64,000 nt of DNA from Escherichia phage PP01: the sequence record NC_054930.1; one strand, 5' to 3'. The notes under the pieces were generated by a model, which was not told the DNA's origin, searched no databases, and was given only the letters and a program-made list of their open reading frames with translations. The position numbers were made by a program, and so were the translations under genes. Of the stretch, positions 3,034-54,910 are shown piece after piece. Numbering within the stretch: position 1 is the first letter of the stretch; the number at the start of each line of letters is the position of its first letter.

Positions 3034-3039
3034 AACAAA

Positions 3040-3064
3040 GGGACCGAAAGGTCCCTTTTTATTT
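3040..3064. terminator. Bidirectional terminator between gene 24 and rnlB
   Basis: GGGACC-GAAA-GGTCCC hairpin flanked by T-runs on both strands. Confidence 0.55.
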
Positions 3065-4070: not shown

Positions 4071-4079
4071 AATTAATCC

Positions 4080-4358: not shown

Positions 4359-4560
4359 TTTTCACCTTTTTATTGATATGTCTTTTTCTATAGACAACTT
4401 TTTCTCGAGTTTCAAATTTATTCTTAGCAGTCATAGCTCGAGCCCATAATACAGCCACTTCTTTTGCCTGTAAGTTCAATTCACGAGCAATTTCAATGAA
4501 TGACTTTCCAGACTCATGGAGTGTAAACACCACAACCTCAGTTCTCATAATCAATCTCAT
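4345..4560 (-). CDS. Hypothetical small protein with possible helix-turn-helix (T4 24.3-like position)
   Basis: 71-aa ORF; segment GKSFIEIARELNLQAKEV resembles an HTH; start uncertain (ATG at 4560 or 4548). Confidence 0.45.
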   Translation of the reverse strand: MRLIMRTEVVVFTLHESGKSFIEIARELNLQAKEVAVLWARAMTAKNKFETREKVVYRKRHINKKVKNGTV

Positions 4561-4610
4561 GTTATCGAGTTGATGCCATTATATACACCGTTTTCTGATT
4601 GTGTTTTATG

Positions 4611-4643
4611 TGCTTTCAAAATGAAGAAAGGGGCCGAAGCCCC
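4611..4643 (-). terminator. Terminator downstream of hoc
   Basis: GGGGC-TTCG-GCCCC hairpin on minus strand followed by U-rich run. Confidence 0.55.
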
Positions 4644-4648
4644 TGAGA

Positions 4649-6067
4649 TTATGGATAGGTATAGATGATACCAGTTTCTAAAGCAGTTTTATGAATGATG
4701 TATCCATTGCGCGATTCTTGAACATCAACTTCTGGATAGTCTTTCATCATCTTCTGAAGAGTGTAACGATGCAAGTAGTATTTACTATCTGGATCTTCAG
4801 TTTTCCAATCTTTACCTTCTTCAGTCATTTTTTGGATTTCATCCATAACCCACCAACCGCACCAGATATAAGCTGAGCTACGATGTGGAAGAGGATGAAC
4901 ATAAGGTAATTCACCTTCTGGTTCCGGAGCAACTTTATCAGTCACTTGAACTTGACCTGTGGCTTTAACTGTTTTACTATCATAGTCAGTTGCTGTAACG
5001 ACAGCAGTAACTTCAATAGTTTGACTTCCAATAGATGATGTATCAACGGTGTATACATTAGTTGACCCTTCTACAGGAGAAGAATCTTTCTTCCATGAAT
5101 ACGTAATTTGTGCTTCTTCCGGAGCATCCGTAACGTTAGCAGTAAATGTAGCCGAAGCATCTTGCTGAACATTAATAGAAGGAGGAGTCAATGTAACCTG
5201 TGGATTCATTGTCTTCTTATTAACTGTCAATGATACTTCATTGGAAGTAACTTCCTTTTCATTATAATTTTCTGCAGTTACTTGGGCTACGCATTTAATT
5301 CTTTTTACTCCACTTGTAGTTGGAGTATAGTTAAATGTAGAGTTAGTTTCTCCACCAACTTGTGAATCATCTACATACCACTGATACGTGGCAGACGCTC
5401 CATCGGGTTGAGAAGCTAAGGCAGCAGTAAATTGAACCGGAGTTCCAATTACTCCAGCAGCAGGACTAGCAGGAGTTACTGCCAAGGTAGTTGTCTGCGT
5501 CTTTTTATTAACCGTCAATGATACTTCATTAGAAGTAACGCTCAATGCATCATAATCTGTCGCAGTTACTTGAGCTACACACTTGATTTTTTTAACTCCG
5601 CTTGTGGAAGGAGTGTAATTGAATGTAGCGTCAGTTGCTTCGTCTACAGGAGAACCGTCAACATACCATTGATACGTAGCAGATGCGCCCGATGGCTGTG
5701 AAGCTAAGGCAGCAGTAAATTCAACGGCTGTTCCGATTACTCCTTCTGGAGGACTATTAGGAGTTACAGCTAAGGTAGTTGTCTGTGTCTTATTTTGAAC
5801 TGTGATAGTTGTACTAATTTCAGCTGTTTCAGCTTCAGCTTCTGGAACTGTATTTGTTGCAACCACTTTAATAGTCTTTTGACCAGCAGGTCCTTTTAAT
5901 ACATAATTAAAGGTTGCTTCAGCTCCATCCTGTGGAACATTATCTACGCTCCAAGCATAGGTAATAGTTCCACCTCCAGTTTCACCACTGGGTGTAGCAG
6001 TAAACTGCTTGGTTTCATCAATAACCCCTGTTGGTGTTTTAGGAGTTATATCAACTGTAAAAGCCAT
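4649..6067 (-). CDS. hoc: Head outer capsid protein Hoc with four Ig-like domains
   Basis: 472 aa; repeated ~96-aa Ig-like units; T4 position between rnlB cluster and inh; longer than T4 Hoc as I recall it (376 aa). Confidence 0.85.
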   Translation of the reverse strand: MAFTVDITPKTPTGVIDETKQFTATPSGETGGGTITYAWSVDNVPQDGAEATFNYVLKGPAGQKTIKVVATNTVPEAEAETAEISTTITVQNKTQTTTLAVTPNSPPEGVIGTAVEFTAALASQPSGASATYQWYVDGSPVDEATDATFNYTPSTSGVKKIKCVAQVTATDYDALSVTSNEVSLTVNKKTQTTTLAVTPASPAAGVIGTPVQFTAALASQPDGASATYQWYVDDSQVGGETNSTFNYTPTTSGVKRIKCVAQVTAENYNEKEVTSNEVSLTVNKKTMNPQVTLTPPSINVQQDASATFTANVTDAPEEAQITYSWKKDSSPVEGSTNVYTVDTSSIGSQTIEVTAVVTATDYDSKTVKATGQVQVTDKVAPEPEGELPYVHPLPHRSSAYIWCGWWVMDEIQKMTEEGKDWKTEDPDSKYYLHRYTLQKMMKDYPEVDVQESRNGYIIHKTALETGIIYTYP

Positions 6068-6076
6068 AAGTTATCC

Positions 6077-6757
6077 TTATTTTAATGTTACGAAAGAAGA
6101 ATTGCGTGTTTCACGAATTAGAACTGATCCGTCACGATTAATGTAGTAAATTAAGCTAAACAAAGTTTGATGCGCAGATGCATGTTCAAAACTAGTTGGG
6201 TGAGATTTCCAATTCGGAGTTTCAGCAATCCACTGGTAAATCCACCAAGGAACAGTGCAGAATCCTGGATTTTTTCCAATCAACTGAAGATTCGGACTAA
6301 AGTTTTCCGGAAGAGTGAATACAGACGGCTTTTCAGATTCAATAATCTCAGCTACAGCCTGTTCGAATTTTTCTTCAACAAAAGGAGTATCTTCAATCAA
6401 AACATCGGTATTTTCGGGAATTTTATCCGTTTCTACTACTTCAATTTTAATGTCAGATTTAACCGGAGAATCAATCAGAAGTGCTGCTTCTGGATTGACC
6501 TCTTCATCGTCATATTTTAACCCCTCTGCAGCATCAGCAGCATCGATTAAGTCTTTAATAGATAACCCATCAGTCTCTGGCATAGGTTCATTAGCGAGCT
6601 TCTGGAGGGCTTCTTCAATATCAATAACGATATTATCAAAAGATTTATTCTTTTTGACCTTTATACCAAACTGTTCAGCATATTCAGCTAATTTAGCCTT
6701 AGCTTCTTTATTATCATCAAGAGCCTTCAGCTCTGCAATATAATCTTTATCTATCAT
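6077..6757 (-). CDS. inh: Inhibitor of prohead protease
   Basis: 226 aa, same length as T4 Inh; synteny between hoc and uvsW. Confidence 0.7.
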   Translation of the reverse strand: MIDKDYIAELKALDDNKEAKAKLAEYAEQFGIKVKKNKSFDNIVIDIEEALQKLANEPMPETDGLSIKDLIDAADAAEGLKYDDEEVNPEAALLIDSPVKSDIKIEVVETDKIPENTDVLIEDTPFVEEKFEQAVAEIIESEKPSVFTLPENFSPNLQLIGKNPGFCTVPWWIYQWIAETPNWKSHPTSFEHASAHQTLFSLIYYINRDGSVLIRETRNSSFVTLK

Positions 6758-6770
6758 AATATTTCCTCAG

Positions 6771-6778
6771 TATAAATA
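6771..6778 (+). promoter_or_regulatory. Late promoter (TATAAATA) for uvsW
   Basis: Exact TATAAATA about 30 nt upstream of the uvsW ATG. Confidence 0.6.
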
Positions 6779-6807
6779 TAGATATATTTATTACATGGTA
6801 TTTAGAC

Positions 6808-8319
6808 ATGACTGACATTAAAGTACATTTTTACGATTTTAGTCACGTGAGAATTGATTGTGAAGAAAGTACATTTCATGAACTCCGTGATTTCTTTAGC
6901 TTTGAAGCTGATGGGTATCGTTTTAATCCGAAATACAAATATGGTCACTGGGATGGACGAATCCGTCTTTTAGATTATAATCGCCTTCTTCCATTCGGTT
7001 TAGTTGGGCAAATTAAAAAGTTCTGTGATAACTTTGGCTATAAAGCCTGGATTGACCCGCAAATTAATGAAAAAGAAGAATTATCAAGAAAAGATTTTGA
7101 TGAATGGATTTCTAAATTAGAAATCTATTCAGGAAATAAAAGAATTGAACCACACTGGTATCAAAAAGATGCAGTGTTCGAAGGATTAGTTAATCGTCGT
7201 AGAATTCTTAATCTTCCAACATCCGCAGGTAAATCTTTAATTCAAGCTTTGCTTGCACGTTATTATTTGGAAAATTATGAAGGTAAAATTCTTATCATTG
7301 TTCCAACAACTGCTTTAACAACTCAGATGGCTGATGACTTTGTTGACTATCGTTTATTCAGTCATGCAATGATAAAGAAAATCGGTGGTGGAGCATCAAA
7401 AGATGATAAATATAAAAATGATGCACCAGTCGTTGTGGGTACATGGCAAACTGTAGTAAAACAACCAAAAGAATGGTTTTCCCAATTTGGTATGATGATG
7501 AATGATGAATGCCATCTTGCTACAGGAAAAAGTATTTCATCTATCATATCGGGTTTAAATAACTGCATGTTCAAATTCGGTTTGTCTGGTTCATTACGTG
7601 ATGGAAAAGCCAATATCATGCAGTATGTTGGAATGTTTGGTGAAATATTTAAGCCAGTAACGACTTCTAAATTAATGGAAGATGGGCAAGTAACTGAGCT
7701 AAAAATTAATAGTATTTTTCTTCGCTATCCTGATGAGTTCACTACTAAATTAAAGGGAAAAACTTACCAAGAAGAAATAAAAATTATTACTGGACTCAGT
7801 AAAAGAAATAAATGGATTGCTAAATTAGCTATTAAACTTGCACAAAAAGATGAAAACGCTTTTGTCATGTTTAAGCATGTATCACATGGTAAAGCTATTT
7901 TCGATTTAATTAAAAATGAATACGATAAAGTTTATTACGTATCAGGGGAAGTTGATACCGAAACACGCAACGTAATGAAAACCTTAGCTGAAAACGGTAA
8001 AGGAATAATTATAGTAGCTAGTTATGGTGTATTTTCTACTGGTATTTCAGTTAAAAATCTGCATCACGTTATTTTAGCGCACGGTGTTAAATCTAAAATT
8101 ATTGTATTGCAAACAATAGGTCGCGTATTACGTAAGCATGGTTCTAAAACAATCGCAACGGTCTGGGACCTCATAGATGATTGTGGTGTTAAGCCAAAAT
8201 CTGCTAATACGAAAAAGAAATATGTTCATTTGAACTATCTTTTAAAACACGGCATTGATCGTATTCAGCGCTACGCAGATGAAAAATTTAATTACGTAAT
8301 GAAAACAGTTAATTTATAA
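6808..8319 (+). CDS. uvsW: UvsW recombination/repair helicase (SF2)
   Basis: 503 aa; helicase motifs LNLPTSAGKS (Walker A) and DECH (Walker B). Confidence 0.9.
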   Translation: MTDIKVHFYDFSHVRIDCEESTFHELRDFFSFEADGYRFNPKYKYGHWDGRIRLLDYNRLLPFGLVGQIKKFCDNFGYKAWIDPQINEKEELSRKDFDEWISKLEIYSGNKRIEPHWYQKDAVFEGLVNRRRILNLPTSAGKSLIQALLARYYLENYEGKILIIVPTTALTTQMADDFVDYRLFSHAMIKKIGGGASKDDKYKNDAPVVVGTWQTVVKQPKEWFSQFGMMMNDECHLATGKSISSIISGLNNCMFKFGLSGSLRDGKANIMQYVGMFGEIFKPVTTSKLMEDGQVTELKINSIFLRYPDEFTTKLKGKTYQEEIKIITGLSKRNKWIAKLAIKLAQKDENAFVMFKHVSHGKAIFDLIKNEYDKVYYVSGEVDTETRNVMKTLAENGKGIIIVASYGVFSTGISVKNLHHVILAHGVKSKIIVLQTIGRVLRKHGSKTIATVWDLIDDCGVKPKSANTKKKYVHLNYLLKHGIDRIQRYADEKFNYVMKTVNL

Positions 8320-8344
8320 GGGCTTCGGCCCTTTGGAGAAAAAG

Positions 8345-8575
8345 ATGTTACTAGAATTTAAACAATTTCTTTATGAAGCTTCTATTGATGAATTTATGGG
8401 TAAAATTGCCTCTTGTCAAACATTAGAAGGTTTAGAAGAACTTGAAGCTTATTATAAGAAAAGAGTCAAAGAAACTGAATTAAAAGATACTGATGACATC
8501 TCTGTGAGAGATGCTTTGGCAGGAAAAAGAGCTGAATTAGAAGATTCAGATGATGAAGTAGAAGAAAGCTTTTAA
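8345..8575 (+). CDS. uvsW.1: UvsW.1 small acidic protein
   Basis: 76 aa from ATG 8345 preceded by GGAGAAAAAG; the ORF-track start at 8333 is a TTG. Confidence 0.7.
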   Translation: MLLEFKQFLYEASIDEFMGKIASCQTLEGLEELEAYYKKRVKETELKDTDDISVRDALAGKRAELEDSDDEVEESF

Positions 8576-8630
8576 ATTAAAAAAGGCCCAACCAAAAAGG
8601 AAGGGCCAAAACTATAGACTAAAGGTCACA

Positions 8631-8798
8631 CTATAGCAAAAGTTGTGTTTCATTTAATTGTTCTTCCGAACTTTCTGAAACTGGTAGTTCTTTAATGTAA
8701 TTATAGCAAGGCCCAGGATGTACAGGACCTTTGTCTGTTTCAACAACCAATGCAGAATCGATTGGAGTTTTACAGACAACACAAATCTTATCTGACAT
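8631..8798 (-). CDS. Small Cys-containing protein, 55 aa (not in ORF track)
   Basis: ATG at 8798 preceded by GAGGAG; translation MSDKICVVCKTPIDS...HPGPCYNY (CxxC plus H/C). Confidence 0.45.
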   Translation of the reverse strand: MSDKICVVCKTPIDSALVVETDKGPVHPGPCYNYIKELPVSESSEEQLNETQLLL

Positions 8799-8921
8799 GA
8801 TTGTCTCCTCTGAATTATATATCTATTTATAACCCCATCTTAAAACGCATTTCTTGTACACGCTTTAAACATGCTTCCATTTCTGCTAAAAGTCTAAATA
8901 CTTCTTTATAATTTGTCATAT

Positions 8922-9149
8922 TTACCCCATATCTCTCATATGCATATCAATGCCCATATCTTTAGAATAAAAATATTCATCAAGATATCCGGCAAATTTT
9001 CCTTTAATATAAAGGACATCTTCACCACACGGGTGGTCGGCCAGGATACGAATATCCTGACGCTTGAGATTATACTTTTTCATTAAGAATTGAATTTCCG
9101 TTTCAAATTCTTCTTCATAATTAAAAGCATCATCAATGCTATATCTCAT
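8922..9149 (-). CDS. Hypothetical protein (uvsY.-1-like position)
   Basis: 75-aa ORF; its start overlaps the uvsY stop (TAATG). Confidence 0.5.
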   Translation of the reverse strand: MRYSIDDAFNYEEEFETEIQFLMKKYNLKRQDIRILADHPCGEDVLYIKGKFAGYLDEYFYSKDMGIDMHMRDMG

Positions 9150-9562
9150 TATTTTCCAGCCTCAAATGCTCGCATGTCTTGAATATGCTTAATAGCAAAT
9201 CCACGTGATTTAATAGCATCAAGAGCTCCGCTACAGAAATCTAATAAAATCCCCCAATACTGTAACGAGGTATCAACCTTTAAAACATCCTTATCAGCTG
9301 ATAGAACTGTCTTCATTTCTGATTTCTCGTAACGATCCATACTAAATTCATCACCATCTCCTCGTCCCGAGTAGTAGTCTAATTTAGCTTTAAGAGCAAC
9401 TTTTTTCTGTGCTTCAATTCTAAGCATTTCCTTTTTAATACTTGAATGCTTATTAAGCCATTTACTATATAACATCACATTATTAGCTGCTTCATATTGT
9501 AATTTAGTCGAATCTATAAACACATCTTTCTTCAATTCTTCTTGAAGATCTTCTAATTTCAT
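9149..9562 (-). CDS. uvsY: UvsY recombination mediator
   Basis: 137 aa as in T4 UvsY; synteny. Confidence 0.85.
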   Translation of the reverse strand: MKLEDLQEELKKDVFIDSTKLQYEAANNVMLYSKWLNKHSSIKKEMLRIEAQKKVALKAKLDYYSGRGDGDEFSMDRYEKSEMKTVLSADKDVLKVDTSLQYWGILLDFCSGALDAIKSRGFAIKHIQDMRAFEAGK

Positions 9563-9628
9563 ACTGTTCTCTATTCAATTGTTATTGGATGGACTTAGAT
9601 TCATTATACCACGTTTATACGTGAAGCA

Positions 9629-10027
9629 TTATACTCTATTACTGGAAGCCAGTTGCAGTTTTATCTGCTCAATATCATCAGGGTTATCAATGACCGAAAA
9701 GCGTATTTCTACTATCAGAGTATAATCATCATAAACCGGTATTACATTAACTGCTAATTTATCAATACGTGGCTCATAGTTTCTTACTGCGCTTTCGATG
9801 TTACGCTCAACCGTATCAGCAGTAAGAGGAGTCATATTTTCAAAAAGCTGATCTGATAAATCACATCCAAATTCAGGGTCAAACGGTCTTGAACCTTTTC
9901 TTGTTGTAATAATTCCTAAAAGACTGTTTTTAATTGACCTTAATCCAAGCGATCTGGAAACGTCTTTGTTCCAATCCATTTTCATTTCCGGGTCAATGTC
10001 AGAATAAAGCTTATTAATATTTGCCAT
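9629..10027 (-). CDS. 25: Baseplate wedge protein gp25
   Basis: 132 aa; synteny 26-25. Confidence 0.85.
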   Translation of the reverse strand: MANINKLYSDIDPEMKMDWNKDVSRSLGLRSIKNSLLGIITTRKGSRPFDPEFGCDLSDQLFENMTPLTADTVERNIESAVRNYEPRIDKLAVNVIPVYDDYTLIVEIRFSVIDNPDDIEQIKLQLASSNRV

Positions 10028-17323: not shown

Positions 17324-19381
17324 CTACATTTTGAACTTTTTAGACATTCCGTTGATGTTAACCAAAGAAGCCAAGATTTGAGAAACTTCATTTTCCTCTT
17401 CTTTTGATTCTTCTACAAGGAATTGATTAAATCCAGCCATTGGACGAACTTCACCAGTTTCCATTAGATGGTCGCCATCATATACCGATTCTTTTAATTG
17501 TTCAGAAGGAGGAACGATTGTGCCTTCGATTAAATACTTATTATAAGCAGTTTCTTTCATCATGTACGTACTCACTTTATTAATCTTCAGCAAAATTCCA
17601 CGCGGTAAAATAACTTCAGCTTCTGACGGAAATCCTGATAAATGCCCTGGAACGATAACTTTGATTCGCTCAGCTCCTTTAATTACCATACCCACGCTAG
17701 TTTCAGCATCTTCATTCGCATAAGCAGAATGACTGCCCATATGCATTAAATCTTCAGCATCAACGGAACCTTCTCCTTCACCAGAAAATACTGCACCGGA
17801 ATCATCTAGAGCCATATAGTTTTTACCATACTCACCGAAGATATTTGGTTTAAGCGATGTGGATACGAAGTTCTTGAAATAGAACATTTTATTTTCAATA
17901 TTATGACGTAAAGTTTTAAAGGTAACTTCTTGTCCACGGTAAAGTGTAGTTCCTGGAGGAAGAACTGATCCTTTGGCAAAGGCAGAATCCATTGTCTCGA
18001 TGTGTTTAATAGCTCGTTCCATGTATTCTTCACGTGTAGAATCCGGTTTACCTAAAAGGAACGAGTTCATTTCAACATATGAATCTGCACAATAATCTTC
18101 AATTACATCAGACTCAGCCTGAGTTAATCCTTTTGGAGTTACTTCAGTACTTGCATATTCATACGCTTGAGAAGCAGACTCATTAATCAATTTATAAACG
18201 CCATTCATGACAAATTGAATAATAGCTACCTTTTCATCTGGCGTGGCTTTAGAACCTTTAACTAAATCATTGACGATTTTCTTAATAACATCAAAGCTAT
18301 TAGAAATATTAATGTCAGCAAGATCGCTTAAAATTTTATCAGTTTTATAATCAAAAAATTCTTTATTCTTTAAATATTCTTGAGAACCTTGATATGTTAT
18401 ATCGCTCTGTAACTTGATAGATGGATCACGTAAACGTGCATGAGCCAATGCAATATGATTTCGGAAGCTTTCTAGTTCATAATCACTAGATTTAAAACGA
18501 GAAGCACTTCTCATACCACCGATAGCTCCTTTGCTGAAGTTTGAACCAACCTGAATAACGCCGGAGTTCATTGGTCCTTCTGCTTTATATACCGGAACTT
18601 TAGATTCAAACTCTTGGTATTTCTTAGCAGCGAAGCTATCACCCTGAAGTGAAGCATCGACGGTAGAGTATTGAGCTTGTGCTGCTAATCGACGACTAAT
18701 TTTAGTTTTCTGAATAACAGCTTGATCCGTGCGCTTATCATTTTCTAAAGCAATAGAAGCGGCAACAGCGACAGCTTTAGGAACAGCATTACCTGTTTTA
18801 ACATCTACATAAACATCACCAACCTTTGATTCAACTTTTGTGAATAACTCAGTTGAAATAGGAGGTACACCTGGAATGTCTTCTAAATTGGCATTTTTAC
18901 GGTAAACCATAATATATGCATATTTCTTATCATAGTCCCAGATTTCCTTTAAAAGAACATATCGACCTGCTCCTTTAGTACGTACTAAACGGTCGGCAAT
19001 AACTTGCATTTGACGAGCTGCGCCATTTGTTTTACTCTTTAGTACGCGGAATAAGCATGCGTCAATTTTGTACTGTTTCATTGTCTGAAGAGCAGTATCA
19101 AAAACCGCATTAATGACACCAATTGGATTTCCACCCAAGTTTTTAAGTTTAACTAATGATAGTTTCTCATTAACACCTATCATTACGATATGCATCATTT
19201 TATCGCCTGGCTTAACGTTTTTATTCGTATCACCGCCAGAGGTGTATGTACAAAATCTAAATCCAGGAAGCACGCTTTCTTCGCCTGCTTGAATAGCAAA
19301 AATTTGAGGTATTTTATGCTTAGGATTTAAGTTAACAACCGGCGCCGAAGCGCCGTCAAATAATTCTGTAATAAGTTCCAT
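17324..19381 (-). CDS. Alt-family mono-ADP-ribosyltransferase paralog (distal copy)
   Basis: 685 aa; Alt-like N-terminus MELITELFD...; R-S-E motifs LYRGQ, FVSTSL, EAEVILPRG. Confidence 0.8.
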   Translation of the reverse strand: MELITELFDGASAPVVNLNPKHKIPQIFAIQAGEESVLPGFRFCTYTSGGDTNKNVKPGDKMMHIVMIGVNEKLSLVKLKNLGGNPIGVINAVFDTALQTMKQYKIDACLFRVLKSKTNGAARQMQVIADRLVRTKGAGRYVLLKEIWDYDKKYAYIMVYRKNANLEDIPGVPPISTELFTKVESKVGDVYVDVKTGNAVPKAVAVAASIALENDKRTDQAVIQKTKISRRLAAQAQYSTVDASLQGDSFAAKKYQEFESKVPVYKAEGPMNSGVIQVGSNFSKGAIGGMRSASRFKSSDYELESFRNHIALAHARLRDPSIKLQSDITYQGSQEYLKNKEFFDYKTDKILSDLADINISNSFDVIKKIVNDLVKGSKATPDEKVAIIQFVMNGVYKLINESASQAYEYASTEVTPKGLTQAESDVIEDYCADSYVEMNSFLLGKPDSTREEYMERAIKHIETMDSAFAKGSVLPPGTTLYRGQEVTFKTLRHNIENKMFYFKNFVSTSLKPNIFGEYGKNYMALDDSGAVFSGEGEGSVDAEDLMHMGSHSAYANEDAETSVGMVIKGAERIKVIVPGHLSGFPSEAEVILPRGILLKINKVSTYMMKETAYNKYLIEGTIVPPSEQLKESVYDGDHLMETGEVRPMAGFNQFLVEESKEEENEVSQILASLVNINGMSKKFKM

Positions 19382-19384
19382 GAT

Positions 19385-21481
19385 TTATCCTTGAACGAAC
19401 TTGTAAGGCATGTTTGTAATATCTATGCAAGACGCAATAATTCCAAGAGATGATTCTACTTTCTGTTTAATATTTGATGAAACAAATGATGCAAAGTCAA
19501 CTCTGTCTTCTATTTCAATATCATCTGTCATTGCAACTACTTCGCCGGTTTCCATTAGACGGTCACCGTCATAAATTACTGATTCGGTGAGTTCTTCCGT
19601 AGTCATAACTTCAGCTTGAATGAGTTTTGTATTATTAGATGTTGTTCCGTCATTATTAGAAGCATCAGTTATTTTATTAACTTTGACCATCAATCCGCGT
19701 GGTAGAATAACTTCAGCTTCTGTTGCTATTCCGAGACTTCCTGGATATACAACATTAACTTTATGAGCTCCATCAATTGCCCATCCTATTTGAACTTTAA
19801 CGTATTCAGGATTTTCTTTATACGCTCTTATTTCGTTTGGATTGATAGTTATTCCTTCTTCATTTTTATCAACTGTTAATTCATTACGAGCTTCTGGTTC
19901 TAAAAGACCTATACCAGCATGTGTAATTCCAAAACGTCCAAAAATGATAGGAGTTAAAGAAGTAGATACAAAATTTCTGAAATAGAACACTTTATTTTTA
20001 ACTAGTGCTTCGTATATAGGAGCAGTCATGCTTTGAGCACGATAAACTGTAATGCCTTCTGGTATACGGTCACCATTTTCAAAAGCTGAATCTAAATTAT
20101 TTATCGCAGATTCAATTTCTTTTTCACTCATTACATCATATCGTTCTGGATTGTAGCGGCCTAAAAGAAGATTATTGATGTCAGTATATCCTGATCCACA
20201 ATACTCTCTAATGCCGCGCTTTTGCGATGGAGTATATTTAGAACCATCACGTGCAATGGTAATATCAATCATTGGACCTGCACCAATTCCAGAAAAGCTA
20301 TAAATCATTCGTTTGAGGAATTTAGTTTTTGCTGCGTTCCAGGAATTTTTAGTTATTTCTTCCCAGACTTCATCTGGCTGCCCTTTACGAGTTTTATTAT
20401 GTTTATCAAGCCAATTATCTTTATATTCTTCAAAGAATTGATTAACAGCTGCTGCGTATTTCTCTAAACATTTTATTGAAGTAGTTGGTTCATTTTTAAT
20501 CGCATTAAGAATTACATCTTTAATTTTTTCAGAAACTTCATTAACCTCACTTTTTGAAAAGAATTTATAATCATAGTGAAGTTCATCTGCAGTTCCTTCA
20601 GCAATAATTTTTGCTGCCTTAGTTTTAGAAGCTAATGAATTAATTCCAAGTTTCATTTCTTCTGCTTCAGGAATTAAAGGAGCTGTAGCAGGTTTATTGA
20701 AATTAGCTGCGGTAGATTCATACTTCTGGAATAATTCACTTTCAAATCTAGAAGATTCTAATGATTGACTTTGCGCAATTGCTCTACGGGAAATTTTAAC
20801 TTTAACGATTACAGCTTGGTCAGAACGTTTATCATTTTCTTGTGCAATAGAAGCAGCAATTGCCTCATTTTTAGTTACTTGAGCTCCAGTATCTTTATTA
20901 ATATAAACATCGCCGACTTTCGATTCAACTTTAGTAAAGAGCTCGGTACTAATTTCCGGAACTCCTGGAATGTCTTCTAGTGATACATTTTTGCGATGTA
21001 TAAGAATATATGCATACTTTTTATCATAATCCCAGAGTTCCTTAAGAAGGACGTATCTGCCACCTGAACGACTACGGATAAGTCTATCAGCAATAACTTG
21101 AATTTGTCGAGCTTGACCAGCAGTTTTAGACTTAAGAATACGAAGCATGCAGGCATCAATTTTATACTGACGCATTGTTTGCATTGCAATAGTAAAAACT
21201 GAATTGATATAATTAATTGGGCTTGGACCGAGACCTTTTAATTTAGCAATTGAACCTTTAGCAGTTAATGTAAAAGGAACAATATGCATCATTTTATCGC
21301 CCATTTTTAAATCGCGATTAGTATCACCTCCAGATGTATAGGTACATAAACGAAAGCCTGGTTGTTCAATTGCGTCATCAACGTGAACTGAAAAAATTTG
21401 TGGTATTTTCTTCTTTGGATTTAAGTTTGTAATCGGAAGAGTAGTATCTTCGTCAAATAATTCTGTAATAAGTTCCATCAT
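19385..21481 (-). CDS. alt: Alt mono-ADP-ribosyltransferase (copy adjacent to gene 30)
   Basis: 698 aa; N-terminus MMELITELFD; motifs VYRAQ, FVSTSL, EAEVILPRG; late promoter upstream. Confidence 0.8.
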   Translation of the reverse strand: MMELITELFDEDTTLPITNLNPKKKIPQIFSVHVDDAIEQPGFRLCTYTSGGDTNRDLKMGDKMMHIVPFTLTAKGSIAKLKGLGPSPINYINSVFTIAMQTMRQYKIDACMLRILKSKTAGQARQIQVIADRLIRSRSGGRYVLLKELWDYDKKYAYILIHRKNVSLEDIPGVPEISTELFTKVESKVGDVYINKDTGAQVTKNEAIAASIAQENDKRSDQAVIVKVKISRRAIAQSQSLESSRFESELFQKYESTAANFNKPATAPLIPEAEEMKLGINSLASKTKAAKIIAEGTADELHYDYKFFSKSEVNEVSEKIKDVILNAIKNEPTTSIKCLEKYAAAVNQFFEEYKDNWLDKHNKTRKGQPDEVWEEITKNSWNAAKTKFLKRMIYSFSGIGAGPMIDITIARDGSKYTPSQKRGIREYCGSGYTDINNLLLGRYNPERYDVMSEKEIESAINNLDSAFENGDRIPEGITVYRAQSMTAPIYEALVKNKVFYFRNFVSTSLTPIIFGRFGITHAGIGLLEPEARNELTVDKNEEGITINPNEIRAYKENPEYVKVQIGWAIDGAHKVNVVYPGSLGIATEAEVILPRGLMVKVNKITDASNNDGTTSNNTKLIQAEVMTTEELTESVIYDGDRLMETGEVVAMTDDIEIEDRVDFASFVSSNIKQKVESSLGIIASCIDITNMPYKFVQG

Positions 21482-28774: not shown

Positions 28775-29007
28775 AGTACGCCATACACCCTTTGTGCTTC
28801 AACTAATCCATCAAAATCCAATTTGAGATGTGTTATTTGGTCACCATCACCTGGATTCACAATTACTAATACTGAACGAGGAGTTTCGGTAATAACACGA
28901 ACCGACGTTTCAGGAAATCGTTCAGAAACCTTATTTACCAATTCCTGAGCAAATAGTTTAACTTTTTCTTGGAATTCTTTAACAGTAATTGGATTTTCAC
29001 TTAGCAT
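28771..29007 (-). CDS. Hypothetical protein
   Basis: 78-aa ORF; overlapping start/stop. Confidence 0.5.
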   Translation of the reverse strand: MLSENPITVKEFQEKVKLFAQELVNKVSERFPETSVRVITETPRSVLVIVNPGDGDQITHLKLDFDGLVEAQRVYGVL

Positions 29008-29528
29008 GTTGATCCAAGCTCCTTACTTTCAACGTTTTTAACTAATTTGACAGAAACTAATTCAGCATCTTGAGTAATCATTACCGGACCTTCTTCATAC
29101 TCTTCAAGATATTCTAGAGCTTTCTTTTTAGCTTCTTCCTTCGTATCAGTTTGAGCATAGATATAGAACATACAACCAGTAATACCTACTACTTTCCACT
29201 TAATTTCTTTATCAGCTTTAATTTCAAATTTACTGGCAGAATCATCTTTTTGAACTTCTTCGAAAAAAGAATATTCTAACATATAAGCAATTGAAAATAA
29301 CGGACTAACTTTATAGGATTCGCCCATTACATCAACAGCTTTATACCAACAGTCATCAATTTCGCGTTTAATGCTAATAACATTTTTCGCAGGATCTATT
29401 TTTACTTTAAATGAATTTTCCCCAATAAACTGGGCAATTCGTTTATTAGCCCCACAAGTTTCATTAAAAATATCTTTATATCCAGCTTTAAAGCGATAAA
29501 CCTTATCTTCTTCAAACCATTCGCTCAT
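29001..29528 (-). CDS. Hypothetical protein
   Basis: 175-aa ORF preceded by an early promoter and GAGGAAA SD. Confidence 0.55.
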   Translation of the reverse strand: MSEWFEEDKVYRFKAGYKDIFNETCGANKRIAQFIGENSFKVKIDPAKNVISIKREIDDCWYKAVDVMGESYKVSPLFSIAYMLEYSFFEEVQKDDSASKFEIKADKEIKWKVVGITGCMFYIYAQTDTKEEAKKKALEYLEEYEEGPVMITQDAELVSVKLVKNVESKELGSTC

Positions 29529-30259: not shown

Positions 30260-31477
<1,218 letters not shown>

Positions 31478-31481
<4 letters not shown>

Positions 31482-32912: not shown

Positions 32913-34500
<1,588 letters not shown>

Positions 34501-34527
34501 AATAAAATGGGCCTTGCGGCCCACTCC

Positions 34528-35697
34528 TTAAAAATATTTTTTAAAACTCATCATAACTTTATCATCAACATCATTATCAATCTGTGCTACAAGGTAAGAT
34601 GACAGTTCTACTTCTTGCGGCGCGGATTGAACATTATCAGAATTAAGATATTCACGAATCCAAGGATATGGATGTTTAACCGGAGCATCGGTAATTGGGC
34701 ATGGAAGACCGCACTGTTTCATACGAGATACAGTTAAGTAATCAATAAAGCTCCACATGCTATTTGTATTTAATCCAGGAACATCACCATCTTTAAATAA
34801 ATGAACTGCCCAATCTTTTTCTTGACGGTTAACTTCCATGAAAATATCAACTGCTTCTTGTTCACACTCTTGAGCAATTTTAACCCATTCATCACCGTCA
34901 GTGCCAAGTTGAAGTTGACGAATAATATATTGAGTGCCTTTAAGATGAAGTTGCTCATCGCGCGCAATGAACTTCATAATCTTAGCATTACCTTCCATGA
35001 TTTCCATGTTCTTATGGAAGTTAAAGGTACATGCGAAAGATACATAAAAACGAATAGCTTCCAATGCATTGATTACATGAAGGCAAAGATAAAGAGATTT
35101 CATTAGTGCTCGTTTAGTACATTCAACAACTTTGCCTAACTCTTCTTTACGAAATCCTTCTGATAAAATTCCTTCATAATCTTCAACCGCATTCTGATAT
35201 TCACGAGTCTTAACTAGAACATCATCATAATAGCGACCAATGGACTCGGCACGTTTCATAATAGCTTTATCTAATACAATCTCATCAAATACCTTTGATG
35301 GATCAGTATAAAGATTTCGCATGATATGAGTATATGAACGGCTGTGAATAGTTTCACTAAAAGTCCATGTAGCAACCCATGTATCAAGACTTGGGTCTGA
35401 AATTAATGACATAAGTACAGCAGACGGTGCACGACCCTGAATGCTATCCAAAAGTGATTGATACTTCAGGTTATTAGTAAAAATATCTTGCTGATACTGA
35501 GGAAGCTTGTTAAATTGTGCAGCATCCATCATCAAGTTTACTTCTTCAGGACGCCAGAAAAATGACAACTGCTTTTCAGTTAAATCTTCAAAAACTTTAT
35601 GACGTTGAATATCATAACGCGCAATACCAAGACCTGAACCGAAGAACATAGGTTCTTTTAAAACATCAACTGGATTTGTATTAAAAACTGTGCTCAT
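34528..35697 (-). CDS. nrdB: Ribonucleotide reductase beta subunit, uninterrupted (no intron)
   Basis: 389-aa continuous ORF. Confidence 0.85.
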   Translation of the reverse strand: MSTVFNTNPVDVLKEPMFFGSGLGIARYDIQRHKVFEDLTEKQLSFFWRPEEVNLMMDAAQFNKLPQYQQDIFTNNLKYQSLLDSIQGRAPSAVLMSLISDPSLDTWVATWTFSETIHSRSYTHIMRNLYTDPSKVFDEIVLDKAIMKRAESIGRYYDDVLVKTREYQNAVEDYEGILSEGFRKEELGKVVECTKRALMKSLYLCLHVINALEAIRFYVSFACTFNFHKNMEIMEGNAKIMKFIARDEQLHLKGTQYIIRQLQLGTDGDEWVKIAQECEQEAVDIFMEVNRQEKDWAVHLFKDGDVPGLNTNSMWSFIDYLTVSRMKQCGLPCPITDAPVKHPYPWIREYLNSDNVQSAPQEVELSSYLVAQIDNDVDDKVMMSFKKYF

Positions 35698-35748
35698 AAA
35701 TTTTCCGCTTAGTTAATAGATAGTGACTCGTCCGTGAGTCAAATTATA

Positions 35749-38013
35749 TCATAATTTACAGGATGAACAATCTTCAGCTTTTGGAGTTTCTATTTCATAA
35801 TCATCAGTACCAGAACCATCACGGGTATTATGATAATAGAAATTTTTTCCGCCAAAATACCAAAAATACAAAAGGTCATCAATCATTACAGACATTGGAA
35901 CCTTTCCTTTTGGAAAAATCTGCGGGTCATAATATGTATTCGCTGAAGCTGATTGACATACCCATTTCAGCATAATAGCTACCTGCGTAAGATAAGGTTT
36001 ATTACCTTTCTTAGCTAATTTCCATGTATAATCATAGAGGTCTATGTTATGTTCAATATTGGGCACGACTTGATTAAAGGAACCCTCTTTTGATTCTTTA
36101 ACCGAGACTGGTCCACGTGGAGGCTCGATACCATTTGTACTGTTAGAAACTTGGGAAGATGACTCACATGGCATAAGTGCTGATAATGTGCTATTACGGA
36201 TGCCAAAGAGCTTAAGGTCTTCCCGCAGCGCCGACCAGTCACAAACGTATTTTGGAGCTGCGATTTGATCAATCTTTTTATTGTACCAGTCGATAGGTAA
36301 TTCGTCTCGAGACCAACGAGTGTCTGAATAATATTCGCAAGGTCCTTTTTCTTTGGCGAGCTTAATGGATGCTTTAATGAGTCCATACTGTAGTCTCTCA
36401 AATAGTTCATGTGTTAAATCGTTAGCATCTTCATAAGAAGCAAAGTTACTTGCCAGCCAAGCTGCATAGTTAGTAACACCTACACCAAGATTTCGACGCT
36501 TTTTAGCTTTTTCTGCTTCAGGAACTGGATATCCTTGGTAATCCAAAAGATTATCAAGAGCACGAACTTGGACTTCTGCCAATTCATTAATTTTATCTTG
36601 GTCTTGCCAATCGAAGTTATCCAACACAAATGCAGATAACGTACACAATCCAATTTCAGCATCAGGACTATTCACATCATTTGTTGGAATAGCAATTTCA
36701 CAGCACAAGTTACTCTGACGAATAGGTGCCTTTTCACGAATAAACGGAGTATAGTTATTCGTATTATCAATGAACTGTACATAAATCCTTGCTGTTCCTG
36801 AGCGTTCAGTCATGAGCAATTCAAATAATTCACGAGCTTTAATACGCTTTTTACGAATATTAGGATCTTTTTCTGCTGCTTCGTATAATTCACGGAAACG
36901 GTCTTGGTCTTTAAAATAAGAATAATAAAGCTCGCCACCCATTTCATGCGGACTGAACAAAGTAATGTAGTCGTTCTTTCCAAACCGTTCCATCATCAAA
37001 TCATTCAGCTGGACGCCATAATCCATATGACGGATACGGTTTTCTTCTACACCTTTGTTATTTTTCAAAACGAGAAGATTTTCAACTTCCAAATGCCAAA
37101 TAGGATAATAAGCAGTAGCAGCGCCGCCACGAATTCCGCCCTGTGAACATGATTTAACAGCAGTCTGAAAATGTTTCCAAAAAGGAATAACCCCAGTATG
37201 ACGCACTTCACCTGTGCCAATCTTAGAACCTTCGGCACGAATCATACCAACGTTAATGCCGATTCCAGCTCGTTTAGAAATATACTCAACAATTGAAGCA
37301 GAAGCCTTATTGATAGACTTCAGCGAATCACCTGCCTCAATAACAACGCATGAACTAAATTGCCGAGTCGGAGTACGACATCCAGCCATAATAGGAGTTG
37401 GCAATGAAATCTGTCGAGTAGATACTGCTTCATAAAAACGGATAACGTGTTTTAATCTATCAACAGGTTCATCTTGATGCAATGCCATTCCAATAGTCAT
37501 AAATGCAAACTGTGGAGTTTCATAAATTTGACCAGTGGTTTTATCTTTAACGAGATATTTTTCTTTTAATTGCATCGCCCCGGAATAAGTAAATTCCATA
37601 TCCCGCTCATGCTTAATTTTTGATTCTAAAAATGTAATTTCTTCTGCTGAATATTTTGACAACAATTCAGGGTCATATTTACCTTCATTTACGCAGTAAG
37701 AAATATGGTCAATAAATGAACGTGGTTCATACTGCCCATAAACATGCTTACGAAGAGCGAACATTAAACAGCGCGCAGCTACGTATTGATAATCAGGCTC
37801 TTCAACTGAAATAGAATTCGCAGCAGCCTTAATGACAATAGTCTGAATGTCATCAGTTGTCATTCCATCACGGAGATATGATTTAATATTTTCATATAAT
37901 TCATAAGGATCTACAGATGTTCCTTCAGCTGCCCAAGATAAAACTTTAATAATTTTTTGCGGGTCAAAGCTTTGAGAAACACCACTACTTTTGATAACAT
38001 TAATTAATTGCAT
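35749..38013 (-). CDS. nrdA: Ribonucleotide reductase alpha subunit
   Basis: 754 aa as in T4 NrdA; ATP-cone N-terminus; synteny. Confidence 0.9.
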   Translation of the reverse strand: MQLINVIKSSGVSQSFDPQKIIKVLSWAAEGTSVDPYELYENIKSYLRDGMTTDDIQTIVIKAAANSISVEEPDYQYVAARCLMFALRKHVYGQYEPRSFIDHISYCVNEGKYDPELLSKYSAEEITFLESKIKHERDMEFTYSGAMQLKEKYLVKDKTTGQIYETPQFAFMTIGMALHQDEPVDRLKHVIRFYEAVSTRQISLPTPIMAGCRTPTRQFSSCVVIEAGDSLKSINKASASIVEYISKRAGIGINVGMIRAEGSKIGTGEVRHTGVIPFWKHFQTAVKSCSQGGIRGGAATAYYPIWHLEVENLLVLKNNKGVEENRIRHMDYGVQLNDLMMERFGKNDYITLFSPHEMGGELYYSYFKDQDRFRELYEAAEKDPNIRKKRIKARELFELLMTERSGTARIYVQFIDNTNNYTPFIREKAPIRQSNLCCEIAIPTNDVNSPDAEIGLCTLSAFVLDNFDWQDQDKINELAEVQVRALDNLLDYQGYPVPEAEKAKKRRNLGVGVTNYAAWLASNFASYEDANDLTHELFERLQYGLIKASIKLAKEKGPCEYYSDTRWSRDELPIDWYNKKIDQIAAPKYVCDWSALREDLKLFGIRNSTLSALMPCESSSQVSNSTNGIEPPRGPVSVKESKEGSFNQVVPNIEHNIDLYDYTWKLAKKGNKPYLTQVAIMLKWVCQSASANTYYDPQIFPKGKVPMSVMIDDLLYFWYFGGKNFYYHNTRDGSGTDDYEIETPKAEDCSSCKL

Positions 38014-38330
38014 AAGTCCTCAACTTGAAAATCGTCTTTAAACAATCGGTTAACTATATGAGCTATTATATCACCATGACACGGCTTTGGTTTACATGTG
38101 CATCCTAGCCTCATTCCACGTAAAGGCTCTAAATGTGCTTTAGTTATTTCTCCGGATTTAATTCGACGTATAAAATCTTTTTTAAATAATTCAATGGCAG
38201 CCTCCCGGCTGCCAGCATCTTTACCGACGTAATTTCCCCAAAATGTACCGCGGTGAATATTAACATCAAAGTCGGATTTATATTTATTCACTACCCGGCA
38301 TAGACGGCCCGCGCGGTGATAATTCAGCAT
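38004..38330 (-). CDS. Hypothetical protein with Cys/His cluster (nrdA.1-like)
   Basis: 108-aa ORF; [13 protein letters not shown] motif; start uncertain (ATG 38330, or a GTG overlapping the upstream stop). Confidence 0.5.
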
Positions 38331-38547
38331 ATTGTTTTTCCGTCAAAACAGTAATATCGTAGTAACAGTCAGAAGAAGTTTTAACTGTGGAAATTTTATT
38401 ATCAAAATACTCACGGGTCATTTTATGAGTATAATATTTTTTACCATAAATGATAATAGGCTGATTTGGTCCTGGAACTTCTAACTCACTTGGGTTAGGA
38501 AGTGTAAAAAGAACGGCACCAGAAGTATCTTTAAATCGTAAAATCAT
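38284..38547 (-). CDS. Hypothetical protein (nrdA.2-like)
   Basis: 87 aa from ATG 38547 with GAGAGGA SD; the track start at 38559 is a TTG. Confidence 0.5.
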
Positions 38548-38570
38548 ATATCCTCTCAATTAAATTAAAA

Positions 38571-39431
38571 TTATACCGCCATCTTTCCTTTAATTGGCGG
38601 GTGAGATACATAGTTGTTAAGAACGAAATCTTTAGGTCTAAGTTTAAGAACATATTTTAATTGTTCTTTAGTAGAAAGATATCGGAATTTATAAGGTAGA
38701 CCACTTATTACCAGCTCACAAAGCTCTTTAGGTTCACGCCTCAAAATTTCTTTACACTGTTCTACGTGATTCATATAGATATGAGTATTACCACCAGAAA
38801 ATATCAAATCTCCTGGAATAAGATTACACATCTTAGCTACAATATGAACTAACGTAGCATATGATGCAATATTAAATGGAAGACCGAGAAAAACATCTAC
38901 CGAACGTTGATACCACTGCAAATCCAAATAGCCATTACGCACATTAAACTGATAGAACATATGACAAGGCGGTAATGCCATATATTTAAGTTCAGCTGGA
39001 TTCCATGCTGAAACAATTTGACGCCTATCATTTGGCAGTTTTTTAATACGATCAACAACTTCTATAATTTGGTCTACACCACCAAAATCACGCCACTGTT
39101 TTCCATAAATTGGACCAAGTTCACCGCTATGATACCCTAAATCTTTTGCCTGATTTTCGTAATTTTCATCCCAAACTGTTTTGCCTTGAATTAATGAATC
39201 GTGCTGAATTAATCGTAAATCATTGACATTTGTGCTTCCTGATAAAAACCAAAGCAGCTCAGCAATGCAAGCTTTCCAGGCGAGCTTCTTAGTTGTTACC
39301 GCAGGAAAACCTTTAGTTAAATCCCAGCGTAATTTAGTACCAAACAAAGCAATTGTTCCTGTGCCTGTTCGGTCATCGGTTTCATAGCCATTTTCAAAAA
39401 TGTCTTTAATTAAATCTTGGTATTGTTTCAT
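38571..39431 (-). CDS. td: Thymidylate synthase, uninterrupted (no intron)
   Basis: 286-aa continuous ORF; T4 td is intron-interrupted. Confidence 0.9.
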   Translation of the reverse strand: MKQYQDLIKDIFENGYETDDRTGTGTIALFGTKLRWDLTKGFPAVTTKKLAWKACIAELLWFLSGSTNVNDLRLIQHDSLIQGKTVWDENYENQAKDLGYHSGELGPIYGKQWRDFGGVDQIIEVVDRIKKLPNDRRQIVSAWNPAELKYMALPPCHMFYQFNVRNGYLDLQWYQRSVDVFLGLPFNIASYATLVHIVAKMCNLIPGDLIFSGGNTHIYMNHVEQCKEILRREPKELCELVISGLPYKFRYLSTKEQLKYVLKLRPKDFVLNNYVSHPPIKGKMAV

Positions 39432-39476
39432 TTAGTACCTTATATAAATTATAATACATTTTATGAAGCTAAATAA

Positions 39477-39824
39477 TCAATACGGTTTAGCATCAAATTT
39501 TCTCTCAATTTCAGGCGTGAAGTATAATTCTTTGCCACGTTTGGAAAAGCGACCAATAATATGATAATTATTCTCATCAAACGTAATATTGCCAATATCC
39601 ATGGCTTTCAACCAAATATCGATATTTCTATCCAGTTTTATATCAAAATTCCAATACGGAGAACTATTACCGAAAATACTGCAAGCGGATTCAGTGAAAC
39701 AACTACTATAAATCTTGTCTTTAGGAACTACTAATTGATAGACGCCTTTAATAAACTGAGGACCCTGCCATTTAGGTTGTTTCGCGTCTTTTTCTAATAG
39801 AATAGGGTAATAATTAAAATTCAT
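39477..39824 (-). CDS. Hypothetical protein between frd and td
   Basis: 115 aa from ATG 39824; the track start at 39836 is a GTG; no recognisable motif. Confidence 0.5.
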   Translation of the reverse strand: MNFNYYPILLEKDAKQPKWQGPQFIKGVYQLVVPKDKIYSSCFTESACSIFGNSSPYWNFDIKLDRNIDIWLKAMDIGNITFDENNYHIIGRFSKRGKELYFTPEIERKFDAKPY

Positions 39825-39844
39825 ATTTTCCGCCACGCATTATT

Positions 39845-40671
<827 letters not shown>

Positions 40672-42684: not shown

Positions 42685-42783
42685 TTTTATTTCCTTTTTA
42701 ATTTAATTAACAGTTGGTGCTATGACGATGTATGACCTCATAGCTGGTCAGTGAGATAATTATAATTTATTTATAATAAGCAA

Positions 42784-50769: not shown

Positions 50770-54910
<4,141 letters not shown>

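Follow-up and report, generated by a model that had tools for sequence, protein, structure and literature searches.

Uninterrupted nrdB and td genes and empty homing-endonuclease sites in Escherichia phage PP01, compared with phages T2 and T4

The DNA analysed here is a stretch of 64,000 nucleotides from Escherichia phage PP01 (NC_054930.1), called the window below. It is a segment of a Tequatrovirus genome and was found by blastn to be collinear with positions 105572-168903 of T4 (NC_000866), with 91-97% identity to the T4 backbone. The nucleotide-metabolism genes lie in the order denA-nrdB-nrdA-nrdA.1-nrdA.2-td-ORF-frd, and the features of this cluster are as follows.

34528-35697, minus strand: nrdB, class Ia ribonucleotide reductase small subunit, an uninterrupted ORF of 389 aa (Pfam PF00268, 2.6e-37)
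35030-35031, minus strand: vacant insertion site of the nrdB intron, between the end of exon 1 (35031) and the start of exon 2 (35030)
35572-35576, minus strand: positions corresponding to the MobE nicks at nrdB nt 122-126, from alignment to T2 nrdB
35698-35748, minus strand: nrdA-nrdB spacer of 51 bp, where T4 has mobE and nrdB.1 (696 bp)
35749-38013, minus strand: nrdA, ribonucleotide reductase large subunit, unsplit, 754 aa (Pfam ATP-cone, lgN and lgC)
38004-38330, minus strand: nrdA.1 homologue (DUF4326, Pfam PF14216), collinear with T4 nrdA.1
38284-38559 as the ORF is listed, minus strand: nrdA.2 homologue (DUF5496, Pfam PF17600 over residues 5-91)
38571-39431, minus strand: td, thymidylate synthase, an uninterrupted ORF of 286 aa (Pfam PF00303, 2.4e-95)
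38871-38909, minus strand: I-TevI homing-site region (-27 to +12) with the unoccupied td intron site between 38883 and 38882, from alignment to T4
39477-39836, minus strand: optional ORF of 119 aa between td and frd (phrog_1928, unknown function; no Pfam match)

An earlier reading made from the letters alone (the sequence-only reading) described nrdB and td as single continuous ORFs of 389 and 286 aa, and both the ORF list and the alignment to the T4 exons agree with it. That alignment, which the same reading had proposed as a check, showed that both intron sites are unoccupied and that the exons are joined exactly. nrdB aligns to the spliced T4 exons with one additional codon in a variable patch (aa 166-195), and its exon 2 has 96% DNA identity to T4. 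The window has TATGTATCTTTCGCAT before and GTACCTTTAAC after the nrdB junction, while T4 has TTTTGCGT and GTACC, and in blastn the window jumped over the 598 nt of the T4 nrdB intron (138458-139055). The td gene has the same length as spliced T4 td, from which it differs at 34 nt and 3 aa (283/286 aa identical). Its junction, with CTCGGT followed by CTTCCA, is uninterrupted at the T4 insertion position, and the T4 td intron (143547-144563) was jumped over in blastn. Sensitive blastn of T4 intron DNA against the window gave only chance matches of up to 33 nt. The Rfam model of the group I catalytic core (RF00028) found nothing in the window, either at its gathering score or at E<=10, but this is weak evidence, as sensitivity was low: in the T4 positive control the td intron was missed and the nrdB intron, at 35.7 bits, stayed below the gathering score of 50. 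The decisive evidence for intron absence is thus the alignment to T4, not Rfam. Full-length Pfam matches above the curated cut-offs were obtained for NrdA, NrdB and Td (PF00268, PF02867, PF00317, PF03477 and PF00303). The ribonucleotide reductase and thymidylate synthase genes are full-length and functional-looking, with splicing unnecessary.

The window nrdA is as long as that of T4 and is unsplit at 36634-36667, the site of an HNH endonuclease insertion in phage FL33. The true start of nrdA.2 probably lies 12 nt downstream of the listed ORF start; the gene is 264 nt long in T4 and T2. In blastn the window jumped over T4 139720-140419, which holds nrdB.1 and mobE. The remaining 51-bp spacer holds a small hairpin (GACTCA...GAGTC, -7.5 kcal/mol), and T2 and FL33 have a near-identical spacer of equal length. 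Two further spacers correspond to the positions of free-standing endonuclease genes in T4.

6758-6807, plus strand: inh-uvsW spacer of 50 bp, without the segE that T4 has here
42685-42783, minus strand: 59-32 spacer of 99 bp, the place of segG in T4

The T4 segE gene (112057-112674) has no counterpart in the window by blastn, which jumped over T4 112045-112679, and the same was found for segG (T4 147919-148541). The inh-uvsW spacer is identical to that of T2 over 50/50 nt and contains TATAAATA (6771-6778), which equals the T4 late-promoter consensus and is a predicted promoter. The 59-32 spacer, near-identical to the T2 spacer, starts with TTGCTTATTATAAATAAATTATAAT and carries predicted elements matching a Mot-box-like TTGCTTA, TATAAATA and TATAAT.

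One homing-endonuclease gene was recognised elsewhere in the window.

989-1689, minus strand: segD pseudogene (free-standing homing endonuclease, GIY-YIG type); -1 frameshift within the A-run at about 1498-1502

This gene is 99.2% identical to T4 segD, and a deletion of 1 nt (A6 to A5) breaks the frame into ORFs at 1441-1689 (82 aa) and 989-1465 (158 aa). Both halves are matched by Pfam SegE_GIY-YIG and by PHROG 314 'homing endonuclease'. The gene is homologous to T4 SegD in the GIY-YIG catalytic module and the C-terminal DNA-binding region, with tblastn identities of 94.7% over residues 1-57 and 100% over residues 54-223. When 15 T4 homing-endonuclease proteins were compared with the window by tblastn, no significant match was found outside segD. 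A screen of the whole window left five ORFs (>=50 aa) that lack a T4 homologue, and none has a nuclease domain; one of them, judged from its position, is a putative T2-type gp38 adhesin. The window has optional ORFs without a T4 counterpart (29001-29528, 31161-31481, 39477-39836 and 40426-40671). Hidden endonuclease genes in insertions relative to T4 were considered and rejected, as Pfam and PHROGs assign all ORFs in these insertions to families of unknown function. A very recent acquisition of segD from a T4-like donor was also unsupported; the flanking genes 23 and 24 are likewise about 98% identical to T4. Among the matches listed for the 701-nt segD query in the phage collection, 12/12 span 702 nt, one base more. 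Neither the frameshifted nor the intact segD allele turned up in exact-pattern scans of IMG/VR, which are uninformative on recurrence.

Taken together, the sites of the two group I introns and the three free-standing homing-endonuclease genes of T4 are empty in the window. The sequence-only reading had placed mobE, segE and segG in T4 between nrdA and nrdB, between inh and uvsW and between genes 59 and 32, in agreement with the T4 annotation and Table 1 of PMC2988022. Their absence from the window, including the 51-bp nrdA-nrdB gap, was confirmed by the ORFs and blastn, but the 59-32 gap, given as 100 bp, measured 99 bp. nrdB.1, which that reading did not list, is absent as well. Its frameshifted seg-like gene is segD, and the tblastn and ORF screens agree that this is the only homing-endonuclease remnant in the window.

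We also compared the sequences adjoining the empty sites with T2 and T4. The MobE nicks have been mapped in T2 nrdB at nt 122-126 (PMC2790892). Over nt 101-140 of nrdB, which span these positions, the window is identical to T2 at 39/40 nt, so that its nrdB 5' region is of T2 type, while it is strongly diverged from T4 (72-73% identity over nt 61-150). The sole difference from T2, at nt 120, sits 2 nt from the mapped nicks and may have an effect on cutting. The cleavage positions of I-TevI are 23 and 25 nt upstream of the td insertion site (PMC2988022), and its CNNNG cleavage motif is kept in the window as CAACG at -27 to -23, at the right distance from the insertion site. The homing-site flanks are CAACGTTCGGTAGATGTTTTTCTCGGT and CTTCCATTTAAT in the window versus CAACGCTCAGTAGATGTTTTCTTGGGT and CTACCGTTTAAT in T4, and at the exon positions pairing with the intron guide (-7, -6 and -4) the window bases are not of T4 type. 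Within this site of about 40 bp there are three differences from T2, at -22, -19 and -4, which may likewise influence I-TevI cutting. For SegE and SegG the comparison was made by regional identity to T2, not at exact cleavage positions: over its first 100 nt uvsW has 99% identity to T2 and 73% to T4, and gene 32 has 100% identity to T2 over its first 100 nt. The alleles adjoining the empty sites are of T2 type ('recipient-type') at each mapped or presumed target.

T2 is an experimentally proven recipient; in T2 x T4 crosses, mobE, I-TevIII and I-TevI showed inheritance ratios of about 2, and transfer of the nrdB intron in dependence on MobE has experimental precedent as well (PMC2790892). The seg and mob endonucleases have been linked to marker exclusion (PMC2988022). 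The sequence-only reading regarded this genome as an invasion target of this kind. The comparison with T2 supports this, and it is reasonable to infer that PP01 would be a recipient for the T4 endonucleases and subject to marker exclusion. In a mixed infection with a carrier of the elements, cleavage would be expected in td by I-TevI, 23/25 nt upstream of the vacant intron site, in uvsW by SegE and in gene 32 by SegG, along with nicking of nrdB by MobE near nt 122-126. Repair off the donor genome would then copy in the element together with flanking donor sequence, resulting in localized marker exclusion. The guide-pairing td bases (-7, -6 and -4) fall inside the interval from the cut to the insertion site and therefore would be co-converted. 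The I-TevIII of T4 is defective (T4 annotation; PMC2790892), and the T4 nrdB intron would therefore move only in trans, by co-conversion initiated by MobE and not by its own homing.

It might be argued that the empty sites represent resistant alleles, in which clustered synonymous changes were selected to block cutting by I-TevI, MobE or SegE, so that the lineage 'escaped' and stays endonuclease-free by target-site immunity, not through lack of exposure. The differences from T4 do cluster at the targets: 8 of the 34 td differences, these 8 being synonymous, fall within 40 nt at the insertion site (p about 0.003-0.01), T4 identity falls to 72-73% in nrdB nt 61-150 and to 73% in uvsW nt 1-100, and the window departs from T2 too, at td -22, -19 and -4 and nrdB nt 120. 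However, the bearer of the 'resistant' allele is T4, since a carrier needs immunity against its own enzyme and is thus expected to diverge from non-carriers at the targets. The CNNNG motif of I-TevI is intact, and this enzyme tolerates many substitutions in its homing site. Moreover, T2 is similarly diverged from T4 and is nevertheless cut and converted efficiently (PMC2790892). We consider target-site immunity very unlikely.

Precise secondary loss of the introns, by reverse splicing, a cDNA-mediated route or recombination with an intron-less relative, is also unlikely. Homing endonucleases have visited this genome, as seen from the decaying segD copy with 99.2% identity to T4, close relatives such as FL33 have the td intron, and T-even genomes are mosaic, with best matches that vary along the window. 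On the other hand, a recent precise loss would leave intron-compatible bases of the T4/FL33 type at -7, -6 and -4 of the td flank, which the window does not have, and the whole td-nrd block is of T2 type. One genome separates loss from a history without invasion only this far, and the present-day function is equal under both. That introns or endonuclease genes of the real phage were dropped by assembly or annotation is scarcely credible. The single-base frameshift of segD in a homopolymer is a typical spot for sequencing error, with nothing specific otherwise to favour an artefact, whereas the exons are joined in frame to the exact codon, T2 and FL33, which were sequenced independently, share the architecture and the spacer lengths, and a 6-kb region of the cluster aligns in one piece in 23 of the 30 best-matching records. 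We are highly confident that the nrd-td region is an ordinary Tequatrovirus nucleotide-metabolism cluster in the endonuclease-free, T2-type configuration.

In the phage collection, about 534 records match the 6-kb region at >=80% identity, and the 23 records mentioned above, from the 30 best of these matches, are collinear with the window. The td intron was found in 197 records at >=80% coverage, the nrdB intron in 118, mobE in 21, segG in 142 and segE in 159, which are rough counts, given the duplicates, lab strains and gene fragments in the collection. Each element is present in a minority of related genomes, and the element-free condition is the majority state.

It has been known for decades that T-even phages vary in their td and nrdB introns and in their seg/mob genes, and T2 has long been used as an element-free recipient suffering localized marker exclusion (reviewed in PMC2988022). 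The intron- and endonuclease-free state of the nrd-td region is common, long known from T2 and not unusual, and the interpretation of PP01 as a recipient restates known T2/T4 biology and is not new. The importance of the observation beyond correct annotation is slight; nrdB and td should each be annotated as a single continuous gene, and the list of empty sites and target alleles can be used if PP01 serves as a recipient in homing crosses.

Compared with known systems, the window most resembles T2 (LC348380) in configuration, with 95.8% identity over 6 kb. The two share the gene order denA-nrdB-nrdA-td-frd, intron-less nrdB and td, the nrdA-nrdB, inh-uvsW and 59-32 spacers of 51, 50 and 99 bp, an ORF-sized td-frd gap (unannotated in T2), an additional ORF of 81 aa after frd and two alt paralogues, and a few substitutions separate them inside the I-TevI and MobE target regions. 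They differ in the variable patch of NrdB (aa 166-195; 392 aa in T2 versus 389 aa), and T2 has no segD (23-24 gap of 83 bp), whereas the window has the frameshifted copy. T4 carries the td intron with I-TevI, the nrdB intron with I-TevIII, mobE, segG, segE and nrdB.1, all of which the window lacks. In T4 the td and frd genes overlap without the 119-aa ORF of the window, and the target-site flanks of the window have diverged from those of T4. FL33 (PP400788) has 96.9% identity to the window over the queried 6 kb and agrees with it in the intron-less nrdB, the 51-bp spacer, the td-frd gap with its optional ORF and the td exon-2 bases. In FL33, unlike the window, nrdA is divided by an HNH endonuclease gene into two ORFs, with a new tail and a new start. 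FL33 also has a td intron with I-TevI beside exon-1 guide-pairing bases of T4 type; with this intron, the lineage has therefore been invaded in nature.

The nrd-td cluster was recovered from the ORF list as three genes with the expected Pfam domains:

34528-35697, minus strand, nrdB, 389 aa
35749-38013, minus strand, nrdA, 754 aa
38571-39431, minus strand, td, 286 aa

Alignment with T4 (blastn), read against the T4 annotation, skipped the following T4 segments in the window:

T4 138458-139055, the 598-nt nrdB intron with the I-TevIII remnant
T4 143547-144563, the td intron with I-TevI
T4 139720-140419, nrdB.1 and mobE
T4 147919-148541, segG
T4 112045-112679, segE

The sequence-only reading had described nrdB and td as single continuous ORFs, and codon-exact alignment to the T4 exons confirmed this, with both insertion sites unoccupied. 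The window td and the spliced T4 td are equal in length and differ at 34 nucleotides and 3 amino acids; the exon junction lies between window positions 38883 and 38882. The corresponding nrdB junction lies between 35031 and 35030, in a flank identical to T4 except at -5 and -2. NrdB residues 166-195 (window 35100-35200) form a patch of about 30 residues that is essentially unalignable among the window, T2 and T4, which have three different versions (NrdB of 389, 392 and 388 aa, respectively) in an otherwise nearly identical protein. It is flanked by the MobE nick site on one side and by the intron insertion site on the other, and it coincides with one recombination point, at nrdB nt 505-515, reported in the progeny of T2 x T4 crosses (PMC2790892).

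Rfam scans of the window gave no group I intron match, and the T4 introns used as control were poorly detected. With the Intron_gpI model at the gathering threshold, both the td and nrdB introns of T4 (positions 3000-10000 of the T4 piece L002) were missed; at a permissive E-value the nrdB intron reached 35.7 bits (gathering score 50) and the td intron was still missed. Therefore, a negative scan does not count against the presence of phage group I introns that contain ORFs. The absence of introns from the window is read from the codon-exact alignments, which are decisive by themselves.

The intergenic claims were largely borne out. The nrdA-nrdB gap is 51 bp, as had been stated, and segE is absent from the 50-bp spacer between inh and uvsW; the 59-32 gap is indeed short and without segG, but it measures 99 bp and not 100 bp. 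The positions that the sequence-only reading gave for mobE, segE and segG match those in the T4 annotation and in Table 1 of the review of Edgell, Gibb and Belfort (PMC2988022). The nrdA-nrdB spacer (35698-35748, minus strand) contains a small hairpin, GACTCA-CGGAC-GAGTC (-7.5 kcal/mol), without a U-tract and kept in T2 and in FL33, a relative carrying the td intron. In T4, a hairpin within mobE is a weak terminator modulating nrdB transcription (PMC2790892), and by analogy the spacer hairpin might have a similar role.

We also found that a frameshifted seg-like gene is the only homing-endonuclease remnant in the window, as had been proposed, by tblastn, blastn and an ORF screen. The significant tblastn matches of 15 T4 homing-endonuclease proteins (segA-G, mobA-E, I-TevI-III) all fell within window 992-1659, and sensitive blastn of the T4 intron and endonuclease DNA against the window returned chance-level matches only. 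The denA gene (EndoII, 34090-34524) matches its T4 counterpart and is not a homing endonuclease. Of 99 non-nested ORFs in the window (50 aa or longer), five had no homologue in the whole T4 genome; four of these fall into PHROG families without a known function, with no nuclease domain found in Pfam or PHROGs, and the fifth (54119-54910) is, judging by its position, probably the T2-type gp38 adhesin. The remnant is as follows:

989-1689, minus strand, frameshifted segD, 99.2% identical to T4 segD

An A-run at about 1498-1502 has lost one base (A6 to A5), and the gene is thereby broken into two ORFs, of 82 and 158 aa. In the phage collection, segD is an uncommon gene, matched by 53 records. Because all 12 of the listed matches span 702 nt against the 701-nt query, without the deletion, the frameshift is peculiar to this genome or else a sequencing error in a homopolymer.

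The absence of an element does not alone make a genome a recipient, and therefore the target sequences were compared. The I-TevI recognition site is about 38 bp long, and cleavage occurs 23 and 25 nt upstream of the point of insertion (PMC2988022). The td insertion sites are:

Window: CAACGTTCGGTAGATGTTTTTCTCGGT upstream, CTTCCATTTAATATTGCATCA downstream of the insertion point
T4: CAACGCTCAGTAGATGTTTTCTTGGGT upstream, CTACCGTTTAATATTGCGTCA downstream
T2: CAACGATCAGTAGATGTTTTTCTTGGT upstream, CTTCCATTTAATATTGCATCA downstream

The cleavage motif CAACG is intact in the window td, with its spacing kept. All eight differences from T4 at the site are synonymous, and these 8 of the 34 td differences fall within 40 nt (p ~0.003-0.01 for any such stretch). 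Three of the eight, at -7, -6 and -4, lie at exon bases which pair with the intron guide sequence. The intron-bearing FL33 has T4-type bases at the guide-pairing positions and window-type bases in exon 2, a pattern that fits carriers being under guide-pairing constraint and non-carriers being relaxed. Repair from the donor after an I-TevI cut would co-convert the guide-pairing bases, since the cut lies upstream of them.

At nrdB, MobE nicks have been mapped to nt 122-126 of the T2 gene, and the T4 nrdB intron moves solely through MobE, the I-TevIII of T4 being defective (PMC2790892). Window nrdB nt 101-140 matches T2 at 39 of 40 positions (nt 120 differs) and is far from T4. The SegE and SegG targets were judged by regional identity to T2: over its first 100 nt, uvsW is 99% T2-type, with 73% identity to T4, and gene 32 is 100% T2-type over the same length. 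In T2 x T4 crosses, inheritance ratios of about 2 were reported for mobE, I-TevIII and I-TevI (PMC2790892), and T2 marker exclusion has been linked to these endonucleases (PMC2988022). Because the target alleles are T2-type and these ratios are about 2, the proposal that this genome would be a recipient for the T4 elements, with marker exclusion expected, is sound by homology. It restates established biology.

The changes at the target sites could be thought to confer resistance to cutting. This is unlikely, because T2 has the same pattern of divergence, yet it is efficiently converted; moreover, such divergence between a carrier and a non-carrier is expected, as the carrier has to withstand its own enzyme. 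That the introns were once present and were precisely lost appears improbable to us, the non-T4 guide-pairing bases in td speaking against loss in recent times. It is very unlikely that introns and endonuclease genes were removed by an assembly artefact, as the junctions are codon-exact and independently sequenced genomes have the identical architecture.

With the intron in td and none in nrdB, FL33 is an intermediate that occurs in nature. Its nrdA consists of two ORFs, separated by an insertion of about 0.9 kb (3135-4072 of the FL33 piece L006) that carries a gene for a 236-aa HNH (Mob-like) endonuclease; a new C-terminal tail of 28 aa has been added to the upstream piece, and the downstream piece has acquired a new start codon. 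The split point corresponds to window 36634-36667, directly after the SNLCCEI motif, where the window nrdA is unsplit. In Aeromonas phage Aeh1, nrdA is reported to be split by mobE, and the FL33 arrangement resembles this 'genes-in-pieces' case. The sequence-only reading had not considered this point.

T4 NC_000866 105572-168903 is collinear with the window, most blocks being 91-97% identical (blastn). Window 34000-40000, searched by megablast against 50,697 phage records, matched 882 of them, the best being Tequatroviruses, with Yersinia phage ZN18 at 97.7% identity and T2 at 95.8% in one collinear piece; the remaining two thirds of the window have other records as best matches (94-97%). Because the best matches change between its parts, the window is, on these alignments, a mosaic Tequatrovirus with no identical record in the phage collection. 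Position 64000, the end of the window, is the counterpart of the final base of the T4 reference (168903, in rIIB), and the source record was probably linearised by the T4 convention.

At an identity of 80% or more, the 6-kb region has matches in about 534 records, and 23 of the 30 best align to it in one piece. Records holding at least 80% of an element numbered 197 for the td intron, 118 for the nrdB intron (some of other genera), 21 for mobE (with 140 partial matches), 142 for segG and 159 for segE, counts that are rough because the collection includes duplicates and fragments. By these matches, the element-free state is the majority state.

Several further differences from T4 were observed, including these ORFs of PHROG families of unknown function:

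29001-29528, minus strand, 175 aa, PHROG 3710, between cd.2 and cd.3, absent from T4
31161-31481, minus strand, 106 aa, PHROG 2364, between pseT and pseT.1, absent from T4
39477-39836, minus strand, 119 aa, PHROG 1928, no Pfam match, between td and frd
40426-40671, minus strand, 81 aa, PHROG 3183, between frd and frd.1, absent from T4

In T4, td and frd overlap, without an ORF between them, whereas the gap is also found in FL33 and in T2 (where the ORF is unannotated). The 119-aa ORF region is a 405-bp heterology adjoining td and would fall in the I-TevI co-conversion range. Window 17324-21481 (minus strand) holds two tandem full-length Alt-like ADP-ribosyltransferase paralogues of 685 and 698 aa; T4 has alt with short alt.-1/alt.-2 remnants there, and T2 is arranged as the window. 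At hoc (window 5499-5515), the T4 alignment has a self-overlap of about 300 bp (T4 110749-111053), an indication that the window Hoc differs from T4 Hoc by about one repeat unit.

In T2 (LC348380), nrdB and td are likewise intron-less, the nrdA-nrdB spacer is 51 bp, the 50-bp inh-uvsW spacer is the same at every base, and the 59-32 spacer is 99 bp. T2 also shares the ORF-sized td-frd gap, the extra small ORF after frd and the two alt paralogues, and differs in lacking segD. In these comparisons, the window has the architecture of phage T2. It contains nothing that departs from known T-even biology: T4 is its occupied counterpart, and T2 the closest known configuration.
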